NCBI GenBank assembly: GCA_965262115.1
Contig: OZ253496.1
Span: 2,304,001 to 2,368,000, forward strand
DNA length: 64,000 nt
Direction: 5' to 3'
Source: Nitrospinales bacterium
Lineage (GTDB): Bacteria; Nitrospinota; Nitrospinia; Nitrospinales; VA-1
The translations under genes were made by a program, and so were the position numbers. The notes under the pieces are model-generated. The model made no database searches. It was not told where the DNA came from and saw nothing but the letters and a program-made list of their open reading frames with translations. Positions 11,625 through 24,810 of this stretch are shown piece by piece (position 1 is the first letter of the stretch; every line of letters starts with the position of its first letter).

Positions 11625-11665
11625 GCTTTCCTGTATTCAAAATGAAGGTTGCTGATTGGGTCGAT

Positions 11666-11795
11666 ATTTTATTCGAATTTTGACCAACTCCATTTTATTC
11701 GAATTTTGACCAACTCCATTTTATTCGAATTTTGACCAACTCCATTTTATTCGAATTTTGACCAACTCCATTTTATTCGAATTTTGACCAACTCC
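11666..11795. repeat. tandem repeat, 5 x 26 bp
   Basis: ATTTTATTCGAATTTTGACCAACTCC five times, perfect, no spacers. Confidence 0.97.
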
Positions 11796-11953
11796 GGAGT
11801 TATTGATATTTTACCATAAGTTTACCCGGGTCGCATGAAAAATTAAAGAACAAGGCCGGTTTATCGATTCCCCGGCTCCAAAAATAATGGGCCGACTTAT
11901 AGCGGGGCTGTGCCCCGTACAAGTCGGCGAGTGATTTTCTTCTTTTTAAAGAC

Positions 11954-21786: not shown

Positions 21787-21954
21787 GAGAGCTTTGCATA
21801 ACCCAAGATTCTTCGTTGCAATAGCTCCTCAGAATGACAAAATATCCTTTTATTGTCATGCTGAGCTAGTGATATTTAACCATTGCTTTCTTGCCCCGGA
21901 GGGGTATGTCGAAGCATCTCGCTTTTCTGCTTTATAGACTTACGCAAAGGTCTC
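21787..21954. mobile_element. MITE copy 3 (168 bp)
   Basis: TIRs GAGAGCTTTGCATAA / TTACGCAAAGGTCTC; 9-bp direct repeat CCTCTAACA at 21778-21786 and 21955-21963; contains a mini-element at 21869-21906. Confidence 0.9.
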
Positions 21955-21978
21955 CCTCTAACAAGGGGGAAGATCACA

Positions 21979-22014: not shown

Positions 22015-22074
22015 TTGCAAGCCGTCAAAGTTTATCGCTCATTGTACCCCCTTCTACCCCTTGTATGTTGTTCA

Positions 22075-22285
22075 TAAGGGGAATTTGTAGTAGTTGTACC
22101 TGTGAGCCCTGTGGGAAGCCGGTTTTGTGTTTTCCACAAGCTCCCAGGATTTGATTCAGGGCACAATAGATCGTTTACCCCTTGGGCTTTTAAGCCCGTC
22201 CCGAAGCGCAGATCGTTGTGTCCTATTTTGATTAACCCGAACAGTTGCCTGGGCCACTGAGCCCGCATCGGCAAGGCTGGGAGAC
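22075..22285 (+). ncRNA. bridge RNA of the IS110 element (ends approximate)
   Basis: 5' stem-loop 22099-22148; target loop TTTACCCCT (22174-22182) and CCCGAAG (22200-22206); donor loop ACAGTTGC (22241-22248) and CAAG (22272-22275). Confidence 0.88.
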
Positions 22286-22291
22286 CAAATT

Positions 22292-23242
22292 ATGAATCAG
22301 AAACCCCATTTTATTGGCATCGATATTTCTAAACTCCATCTGGATGTTGCTGACAGCATGACTCAAGAAACCTGGCAAACCGCTAACAATGAGGAAGGGA
22401 TTGCTGGTTTGGTCGAGAGTTTATCCGCCTTAAATCCTCCATTGATCGTTTTGGAAGCCACAGGCGGCTTAGAGATCCCGTTGGCTTCGGCCCTGGTTGC
22501 GGGTCGACTGCCAGTAGCCGTGGTCAACCCACGGCAAGTTCGTGATTTTGCCAAAGCCACCGGGAAACTGGCAAAAACCGATGTCATTGATTCTCTTGTG
22601 CTGGCCCATTTTGCCAAGGCCATACGTCCTGAGGTCAGGAAAATCAAAGACGAAGAATCTCTGGAACTCTCAGCTCTAGTGACACGCCGTCGCCAGTTGA
22701 TCGAGATGCTGACCAAAGAAAAAACCCGTCTAAAACAAGCTCCAAAATGGATATGTAAAGACATTAAGGAGCATATCGAATCTCTTAAAAAACGCTTGCG
22801 AAAAATCGATGGCGACCTTTCCAGAACCATCAAAAACAGTTCTGCCTGGCGTGAGCACGACCAGATCATACAAAGTGTTCCCGGTGCCGGTCCCGTTCTG
22901 GCTGTCAACCTCTTGGCCGGGGTTCCGGAACTTGGAGTTCTTAATCAGAAGCAAATCGCCGCCCTCATCGGTCTCGCTCCCCTCAATCGGGACAGCGGAA
23001 AGTTCCGGGGCCGCCGGTGTATCTGGGGCGGCCGCGCCAATGTGCGTGCCGCTTTATACATGGCCGCCGTCACTGCCATGCAGCATAATCCCGTGATTCG
23101 TACCTTTTACACACGCCTCATCGAAAAGGGCAAACCCTTTAAAGTTGCCATTACCGCATGCATGAGAAAGTTATTAACGATCATCAATACCATGATCAAA
23201 ACAAAAACACTCTGGAATGAAAATCTCATTGCCAGCACTTGA
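22292..23242 (+). CDS. IS110 family transposase / bridge recombinase
   Basis: DEDD RuvC-like motifs IGIDISK, LEATG, KTDVID; C-terminal GLAP...DSGK catalytic Ser; intact 316 aa. Confidence 0.96.
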   Translation: MNQKPHFIGIDISKLHLDVADSMTQETWQTANNEEGIAGLVESLSALNPPLIVLEATGGLEIPLASALVAGRLPVAVVNPRQVRDFAKATGKLAKTDVIDSLVLAHFAKAIRPEVRKIKDEESLELSALVTRRRQLIEMLTKEKTRLKQAPKWICKDIKEHIESLKKRLRKIDGDLSRTIKNSSAWREHDQIIQSVPGAGPVLAVNLLAGVPELGVLNQKQIAALIGLAPLNRDSGKFRGRRCIWGGRANVRAALYMAAVTAMQHNPVIRTFYTRLIEKGKPFKVAITACMRKLLTIINTMIKTKTLWNENLIAST

Positions 23243-23259
23243 CATTTAACACAGTTGCT

Positions 23260-23335
23260 TCGGGGCATGAAGCCAATGAAGAGGGCATAACAGGGGCATG
23301 AAATTTACTGAGTAGATAAGCTCCACGCCTAGTGG
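23260..23335 (-). repeat. right part of the IS-interrupted inverted repeat (left part 22039-22061)
   Basis: Reverse complement of 24585-24664 with small indels; includes the glgC stop codon. Confidence 0.9.
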
Positions 23336-24573
23336 GGAAATTTAAAACCTTTGGGAAGAACAATGATGTTGGATTCCTCATCGACGAAGAAACGGCCTTT
23401 ATCCTGCTCCAGATCATACCCCATAGTGGTGTTGGGGGGAACCTCAACATCCTTGTCGATGATCGCCATATTAATTTTGCAGTTTTTGCCGATTTTTACC
23501 CGGTCCATCAACAAAGAGTTGATGACCGCCGCGCCACTGTCGATGCTGACCTCACGACCGATCACCGAGTCCTGCACAATTCCTCCGCTGATAATGCTTC
23601 CTTCGGCAACGATGCTGTTGACGGCCTGGCCCCGGCGCCCGTCCTCATTAAAGACGAACTTGGCCGGTGGCGTTCCGTAGCTTGCAGTTTTGATGGGCCA
23701 GTTTTTATTATAAAGGTTGAACTCGGGTTTGATATTTCTCAAATCCATATTGGCTTCCCAGAATGCTTTGATAGTGCCGACATCCCGCCAATAGCCGATT
23801 TCTTTTCGGGTGATACCAGGAATCCGGTTTCTGCGAAAATCGTAAGCGAATACTCTGGATTTTTTGAAAACCCGGGGCAGGATGTCTTTGCCGAAATCGT
23901 GCGAGGACTCCACATCCGCCGCGTCGTCATGGAGCATTTCAATTAAAGCATCTTTGTTGAACAGATAGTTACCCATGGACGCGAAGGCTTCATGAGGTCT
24001 TCCAGGGATGGGTTTCGCGCGTTTGGGTTTTTCTTTGAACCCTGTGACTCTTTGCTTTTCCTGCACCTGAATCACTCCAAACGAAGATGCGTCTTTAAGA
24101 GGTACGGGCAGGGCGGAGATGGTGACCTCGGCCCGCTTTCGCACATGAAAGTCGATCATTTGTTGCAAGTCCATACGGTAGATATGGTCAGCGCCGAAGA
24201 CGGCGATGAGGTCGAAGTCTCCATCCTCAATCAAATTGATGTTCTGATAAATGGCGTCTGCTGTGCCGCGGTACCAACTGTCTCCCGTGCGTTTTTGTGC
24301 CGGGACAGGGAGAATGAAGTGGTCACGCAAAATGGAACTGAAGCGCCAGCTTTCCTGTAAATGTTCGGCTAGTGACTGGGACTTGAACTGGGTCAGAACG
24401 TAAATAGAATAGATTCTGGAATTGATGAAATTGCTCAAGGGGAAATCAACCAGCCGATACTTTCCACCAAAGGGGACAGCGGGTTTAGCCCGTTGTTGGG
24501 TGAGAGGATAGAGTCGGCTGCCCTCGCCGCCGGCAAGAATCATTCCGAGGACTTTTTTTATCGAACCGGCCAT
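23329..24573 (-). CDS. glgC: glucose-1-phosphate adenylyltransferase
   Basis: LAGGEGSRLYPLT..RAKPAVPFGGKYR, WYRGTADA, DFGKD, YWRDVGT. Confidence 0.97.
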   Translation of the reverse strand: MAGSIKKVLGMILAGGEGSRLYPLTQQRAKPAVPFGGKYRLVDFPLSNFINSRIYSIYVLTQFKSQSLAEHLQESWRFSSILRDHFILPVPAQKRTGDSWYRGTADAIYQNINLIEDGDFDLIAVFGADHIYRMDLQQMIDFHVRKRAEVTISALPVPLKDASSFGVIQVQEKQRVTGFKEKPKRAKPIPGRPHEAFASMGNYLFNKDALIEMLHDDAADVESSHDFGKDILPRVFKKSRVFAYDFRRNRIPGITRKEIGYWRDVGTIKAFWEANMDLRNIKPEFNLYNKNWPIKTASYGTPPAKFVFNEDGRRGQAVNSIVAEGSIISGGIVQDSVIGREVSIDSGAAVINSLLMDRVKIGKNCKINMAIIDKDVEVPPNTTMGYDLEQDKGRFFVDEESNIIVLPKGFKFPH

Positions 24574-24584
24574 AAGGGTCTCTT

Positions 24585-24687
24585 CCACTCGGTGTGGAGC
24601 TGTGATATCTACTCAGTAAATTTCATGCCCCTGTTATGCCCTCTTCATTGGCTTTCATGCCCCGAAGGGGTAGAAGGGGTACAATGA
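24585..24687 (+). repeat. intact ~103-bp repeat with a self-nested mini-element and an empty IS110 target
   Basis: Outer unit 24602-24681 interrupted by inner unit 24633-24672; CCCGAAGGGGTAGA at 24661-24674 is the reverse complement of the 14-nt target. Confidence 0.9.
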
Positions 24688-24810
24688 ACAATCACTCTTG
24701 CTGGTGGGCAACGATGCTCTTGGTCCAACAAGCCATTGCCCCATTTTCCCGGGCGTGGCCTGGGCTGGTTTCGATGATATTGCTAAAATTCTGGACTGTC
24801 AACCGGGCAC

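Follow-up and report, generated by a model that had tools for sequence, protein, structure and literature searches.

The window analyzed here is a stretch of 64,000 nt from contig OZ253496.1 of a Nitrospinales bacterium. At positions 22060–23259 it contains an IS621-type IS110 element that runs from CT to CT, with a non-coding left end of 230 nt upstream of the recombinase gene and only 15 nt separating the stop codon from the right core (Table 1). A profile search of the recombinase identified the domains PF01548 and PF02371, and the NCBIfam model for IS110 (NF033542) scored 226 bits against a cut-off of 140. The protein matches those of ISCro4 (E = 9e-33) and IS621 (E = 6e-30), and D11, E55, D97, D100, and S235-G236 align to D11/E60/D102/D105/S241 of IS621; the 316-aa enzyme thus keeps the DEDD residues and the catalytic serine, as the original prediction had it. 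At least 7991 homologous proteins were found at E ≤ 1e-50. Membership in the IS1111 group was considered and rejected, since it would need a guide region downstream of the gene, and here the guides lie upstream and the right end closes shortly after the stop codon.

Target and donor share a single CT core, and copy junctions and empty sites revealed no target duplication beyond CT; sister copies that sit in G sites (described below) set the core length at 2 nt. Nested mini-repeats, one in the hairpin loop of the other, lie at 22046–23310 and, inverted, at 24610–24690, and flank glgC (23329–24588, minus strand). The target reconstructed in the original prediction agrees with an empty, near-identical twin of the pre-insertion site in this second region. 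A longer palindromic repeat with dozens of copies in the genome occupies 21787–21955, and a perfect tandem repeat with a 26-nt period lies at 11640–11816.

Table 1. Positions of the element, its predicted RNA parts, and its sites in the window
Feature	Position	Strand	Basis
Left target truly read, TACCC; opens the split ~40-nt mini-repeat	22055..22059	+	22/25 left junctions; t3-t7 covary in orthologs, t1-t2 do not
Left CT core	22060..22061	+	sequence; 2-nt length fixed by G-site sister copies
Right donor TGTAT, first bases of left end	22062..22066	+	identical to IS621 right donor
Predicted -10 box TATGTT of circle-junction promoter	22064..22069	+	TATCTT/TATGTT/TATATT in 62/74 orthologs
Predicted bridge RNA, both ends inferred	22076..22285	+	fold, ortholog covariation; start inferred from -10 box
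5' stem-loop	22099..22148	+	MFE and centroid fold
Target-binding loop: outer stem, GATC stem, cap 22184-22197	22158..22224	+	fold; ortholog pairing
CGU linker	22172..22174	+	comparison with published IS621 bridge RNA
Left target guide TTACCCCT, first base relaxed	22175..22182	+	ortholog alignment; IS621 RNA comparison
Right target guide CCCGAAG, preceded by GU linker	22200..22206	+	sequence; orthologs; base 22204 A->C in G-site sisters
Handshake guide CG of target loop	22207..22208	+	C opposite donor G7; in IS621 instead A opposite T7
Donor-binding loop, closing CCC/GGG, cap 22251-22264	22236..22281	+	ortholog pairing
Left donor guide ACAGTTGC	22241..22248	+	equals left donor in 69/74 orthologs (count partly circular, see text)
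Split right donor guide AT..GCAAG (22267-68, 22271-75) and handshake GC (22276-77)	22267..22277	+	layout as IS621 A157-U158/G161-G165, G166
IS110 recombinase, 316 aa, DEDD RuvC and Tnp domain with S235	22292..23242	+	ORF, domain profiles, alignment
-35 box TTGACA, overlaps stop codon	23239..23244	+	TTGACA/TTGACT at same offset in 57/74 orthologs
Left donor ACAGTTG, last bases of right end	23251..23257	+	sequence, copy junctions
Right CT core	23258..23259	+	sequence
Right target TCGGG and remainder of split mini-repeat, nested in loop of second mini-repeat	23260..23292	+	copy junctions, sequence
Empty near-identical twin of pre-insertion site	24632..24672	-	sequence comparison within window

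The predicted bridge RNA and its guides

The stems of the predicted RNA are visible in the fold, with a whole-region z of only −1.73, and are paired in 57–73 of 70–73 orthologs with several compensatory pair types; the outermost target-loop pair (30/72) and the fifth cap pair (16/58) found no such ortholog support. An Rfam search returned one match, to sX15 on the minus strand, which fell below the gathering score (36 versus 55 bits) and was taken as chance. To compare guides with targets and donors, we assembled a pool of 191 ortholog loci, from which 11 duplicates were dropped. The protein was covered in 169, of which 34 had no right-end pattern and 12 no left-end pattern; among the 123 orthologs kept, 113 were flanked by 7 nt, and from them 74 distinct guide pairs were obtained, that of the window among them. 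Guide columns were taken from the alignment and not from the best match.

The right-target match averaged 4.43 of 5 bases over the 74 guide pairs, versus 1.57 after shuffling (maximum 2.07 in 5000 shuffles), and 4.33 versus 1.41 on the 52 distinct right guides with the window excluded; because the orthologs are kin, the shuffles overstate the significance of these values, diverse as the targets nonetheless are. Per guide pair, all five bases matched in 52 of 74, at least four in 63, and three or fewer in 11. The left-target match averaged 4.54 of 7 versus 2.65 shuffled, with positions 3–7 covarying (0.68–0.95 versus 0.30–0.78 shuffled) and positions 1–2 at chance, with or without wobble (0.16 versus 0.22, 0.38 versus 0.34); the latter two also differ from copy to copy within the genome. 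In 69 of the 74 orthologs, 13 of them with a changed donor, the left donor guide is identical to the donor, a count that is partly circular because element ends were located with a donor-like pattern. The handshake base C22207 forms a C:G pair with donor G7 in 71/74 orthologs, and G22276 stands opposite target C7 in 64/74; the second handshake base of the donor loop pairs in just 12/74. TACCCCT, CCCGAAG, and ACAGTTGC never occurred all together when the left end (230 nt) was shuffled 3000 times with dinucleotides preserved, and two shuffles contained two of them. Taken together, the covariation indicates that the guides are real, the target guides changing with the target and the donor guides with the donor, and that the effective target is TACCC-CT-TCGGG, that is, 5+2+5 bases with the two outer left positions unread.

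The original prediction had placed four guide strings in an IS621-type RNA with a 5′ stem-loop and two internal loops. The fold, the covarying stems, and the guide covariation bear out that architecture, and the strings do stand at 22174–22182 (TTTACCCCT), 22200–22206, 22241–22248, and 22272–22275 (CAAG); their limits required revision. Position 22174 is the U of the linker, which leaves a left guide of 8 nt, and the match of eight of nine bases claimed for the left target overstated it, as agreement at the two outer left positions does not exceed that after shuffling. On the donor side, the left guide and CAAG held up, and the right guide proved incomplete, since it also includes the AT at 22267–22268 and G22271. 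A long right guide, which had been thought distinctive, is the norm of the clade at 7 nt, with all five bases matched in most guide pairs; Durrant 2024 already gives 4–7 nt for the right target guide. Two further extensions were tried and rejected. Base 22183 (T→G in the sister copies), taken as a continuation of the left guide beyond the core, agrees with target +1 in just 20/74 orthologs. The GU that precedes the right guide, taken as extra pairing, is a linker kept across the orthologs, while the bases at target +6/+7 are variable.

Individual orthologs showed departures from these rules and other features. The ortholog L138, whose guide is of the A variant, occupies a T site. Site choice is looser in a relative in the genome G016 (guide CCCGGAG), where the right junctions carry T, T, C, T, and G at +1, and three of the five lie outside the mini-repeat. 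In a Dehalococcoidia ortholog (L056–L063, OZ244723.1), one guide type occurs with two unrelated targets, CCCC-CT-TTTCG and TGAC-CT-GTGTC, where guides may also be supplied in trans from a second source. A member on an E. coli plasmid (L191, CP101802.1) belongs to the same donor clade at 46% identity, has the same 14-nt donor and a right match of 5/5, and is an easy source for bench tests. The named relatives are Nitrospinaceae.

Genomic copies and the mini-repeat target

The genome (G000; one contig, 2.68 Mb) yielded 24 DEDD-domain matches, every one from this IS110 family, and no second IS110 family was found among them. Fifteen of the 24 recombinase copies are intact at 99–100% identity, and seven of these encode an identical protein; seven copies share one 10-bp frameshift just 3′ of the catalytic serine codon, and two are broken sister copies at 88% identity. 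The original prediction of a probably active ortholog holds in that the element was likely active recently, given the 15 intact and nearly identical copies.

Almost all copies sit in the hairpin end of a 39–41-nt mini-repeat, a natural target different from that of IS621, as had been predicted. The proposed check that other copies share the site was borne out, with exact right junctions (n = 26) of 23 CT-TCGGGG, two GCGGGG, and one CGGGGC, and exact left junctions (n = 25) of 22 TACCC-CT, two ACCCC, and one GTGTC; one further copy with an extra T was excluded from the left count. Among the copies, 17 different left flanks and 10 different right flanks of the T type can be told apart, which diverge within 15 nt of the core. 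Both the IS110 copies and the IS3 copies described below are mosaics in their SNPs, in the variants of the mini-repeat, and in their outer flanks, a sign of heavy recombination or of a mosaic assembly. The number of independent IS110 insertions is thus not exact, and part of the copies may stem from recombination or assembly. One copy starts at a CT inside a duplicated left end, with a junction, TTGTGTC-CT, that fits neither guide. At G000:C1:2144612–2145991, the first ~165 nt of a left end run straight into a full copy, with the joint at the closing CT of the target-loop stem (window 22223–22224), possibly through self-insertion and then deletion. At G000:C1:2518280–2519443, two partial left ends meet head to head at the arms of the 5′ stem-loop, alongside an IS3 fragment in inverted orientation and a right end of 125 nt, which looks like an inversion inside a composite.

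The mini-repeat has 297 matches in the genome at ≤1 substitution, and its motif is present in 21 of 23 genomes of the genus. Matching empty sites were found for some mini-repeat copies, and all 28 empty exact 12-mers (TACCC-CT-TCGGG) fall within the mini-repeat. The base after the core in 137 empty sites is A in 41, G in 37, C in 31, and T in 28. Against these 28 T sites among 137, the main element occupies 10 distinct 15-nt T-flanks and one other (Fisher p = 4e-6, which is optimistic because the copies are related and not fully independent). Given recognition of about 5+2+5 bases, the element reads the variable loop base and takes only the T-variant. The two decayed sister copies carry the guide CCCGCAG (22204 A→C) and lie at CT-GCGGG, i.e., in G sites; both are broken, and they share the right flank, so the guide switch was probably one event. 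The palindromic repeat at 21787–21955 holds a C-loop mini-repeat (~21867–21905, minus strand) that the IS110 does not use. We considered the IS110 as the mover of the mini-repeat and found no support for this, as the consensus repeat ends do not match the donor guides; no Y1 transposase was found in the genome (94% complete).

An IS3-family element (G000:C1, e.g., 695240–696529) carries a 41-nt mini-repeat at the orfA/orfB junction in all 17 sites found, seven of which are empty and 10 of which hold an IS110 left end. An insert of 41 nt would be expected to disrupt the −1 frameshift fusion usual in IS3, and the IS3 element multiplied nonetheless. A clear, matching target duplication was seen in only one of the 11 IS3 copies that are paired, and several copies have outer flanks in common.

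It is an even call, in our estimate, whether the loop-base choice records natural reprogramming on one chromosome, in which a one-base change of the right guide would let two sister recombinases split ~40-nt mobile hairpins between them by loop base. The IS110 would also be a hyperparasite of the mini-element that rides it into IS3, a three-tier nesting, and its clade would read a symmetric 5+CT+5 with a strict right arm. If true, this clade could be a more specific editing scaffold than IS621.

Proposed mechanism and alternative explanations

We put at about 0.9 the probability that this is an intact, multi-copy IS621-type IS110 whose left end would encode a two-loop bridge RNA likely directing insertion at TACCC-CT-TCGGG in the mini-repeat hairpin. 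By analogy with IS621, the element would leave as a circle, and joining of its ends would build the donor ACAGTTG-CT-TGTAT along with a promoter that could raise the levels of bridge RNA and recombinase. The recombinase would then cut at CT through a phosphoserine, and the handshake bases would drive strand exchange; the steps from circle to insertion are presumed to follow those of IS621. The joined ends place TTGACA 17 nt before TATGTT, by sequence consensus only. A promoter scan of the linear sequence gave no plus-strand match, as expected if the promoter needs the junction. Neither a circle joint nor a junction-type loose end was found in the contigs of the public runs X1–X5 and X10, some of which may be the source of this DNA, and contigs drop rare forms (14 of 34 loose ends were listed for X1, X3, X5, and X10).

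The main reading has to be weighed against the view that a true bridge IS110 no longer transposes and that its copies come mostly from homologous recombination, gene conversion, IS3 hitchhiking, or scrambling of repeats in the assembly. SNP haplotypes and flanks are shuffled among the copies and most IS3 copies are without matching target duplications, so recombination or assembly scrambling has occurred; the left ends in 10 of 17 IS3 sites, the outer flanks shared by several IS3 copies, of which just one in 11 paired copies has a clear duplication, and the single frameshift common to seven copies point the same way. However, the 17 left and 10 T-type right flanks need many separate insertions, 15 ORFs are intact with seven identical proteins, and the same IS3 site exists both occupied and empty, which together make this view improbable. 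Less credible still is the idea that sites are chosen mainly by the DNA hairpin of the mini-repeat, a structural gate as for ISPpu10, or by the protein, with the guide matches secondary. Nearly all sites here do lie in the hairpin repeat, and a target stem-loop raises the efficiency of ISPpu10 (10.64898/2026.03.19.712850), but ISPpu10 still needs pairing. Here, the loop variants with A, C, or G, which account for 109 of the 137 empty sites, have the same fold, and still the main element shows no clear use of any of them; the sole CGGGGC junction belongs to a truncated copy and is ambiguous. Orthologs with unrelated targets match their own guides, and the insertions of the G016 relative outside the mini-repeat at three of five right junctions argue that the hairpin is not required. 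The hairpin may nonetheless make a modest contribution to site choice.

Under the same guide logic, the element might instead be copied out as a single-stranded circle that leaves the donor site intact, rather than excised as a double-stranded one. Such copy-out is reported for IS621 in a cell-free system (10.64898/2026.08.31.748434) and fits the build-up of 24 copies, whereas post-excision sites of IS621 were detected in E. coli (PMC13626964), so that published accounts disagree on the strandedness of the circle. We treat copy-out as possible and lean somewhat toward excision; the choice alters the intermediate, not the identity of the element.

Comparison with known systems

As a guide-directed IS110, the element most resembles IS621 of E. 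coli and ISCro4/IS622 (PMC11208160, PMC11208158, 10.1101/2025.05.14.653916; PDB 8wt6, 9t56). Their left-end RNA has a 5′ stem-loop and target and donor loops like the one predicted here, and the CT core, split right donor guide, handshake bases, junction promoter, DEDD plus Ser, and insertion into palindromic repeats are also shared. It differs from both in its distant protein, longer left end (230 nt), and target. The donor differs from that of IS621, which the original prediction had given correctly, in 2 of 14 bases, with ACAGTTG on the left instead of ACAGTAT. One base fewer lies between the conserved CG and the core than in IS621, which gives the 8-nt left guide that reads only five non-core bases; the natural right guide covers five non-core bases, whereas the native RTG of IS621 is 4 bp including the core.

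ISPpu10 of Pseudomonas putida (10.64898/2026.03.19.712850) also has a CT core, six left-guide and five right-guide positions (RTG positions 1–5 were tested), a relaxed distal left position, a strict right guide, and a REP hairpin target. Its stem-loop lies 5′ of the core, whereas the hairpin here spans the core. The ISEc21/ISMch6 seekRNA study (PMC11187229) likewise reports an upstream non-coding RNA, a circle promoter, and a target inside IS3-family elements, as well as natural retargeting between relatives. Those elements belong to a subgroup with longer transposases (345–385 aa), which excludes ISEc21 as the nearest tested relative of this 316-aa protein, and ISEc21 targets the IS3 DDE codons directly, whereas here IS3 is reached only through the mini-repeat that it carries.

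The donor ACAGTTG-CT-TGTAT defines a clade in the Durrant 2024 set, where the identical 14-nt string occurs 424 times in supplementary file 5, versus 200 for the IS621 donor. The target 12-mer and the word "Nitrospin" had no occurrences in the searched text of seven Durrant 2024 supplement files (two only in part, one PDF unread), and the donor string occurred in none of the main texts in our literature search. A search for IS110 and Nitrospina returned one off-topic paper and no description of this element, with subscription papers and bioRxiv supplements outside its scope. The donor type is already abundant in published orthologs, thousands of orthologs and natural retargeting are in print, and the mechanism is unchanged; the element appears to be a likely active but ordinary relative of the genome-editing bridge recombinases. 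In a screen of 72 orthologs in human cells, only 18 gave any product, so its value as a tool is unproven.

Judged from its sequence, the element is one more ortholog for the pool of bridge recombinases, cleanly decoded and probably active until recently, and it lends support to a 5+2+5 reading rule in a clade that is large and has been little tested. Its repeat provides an inherent test of specificity, in that it has four loop variants, one taken by the main element and another by a guide-changed sister, and together these variants and the sister guide form a ready single-base retargeting experiment.
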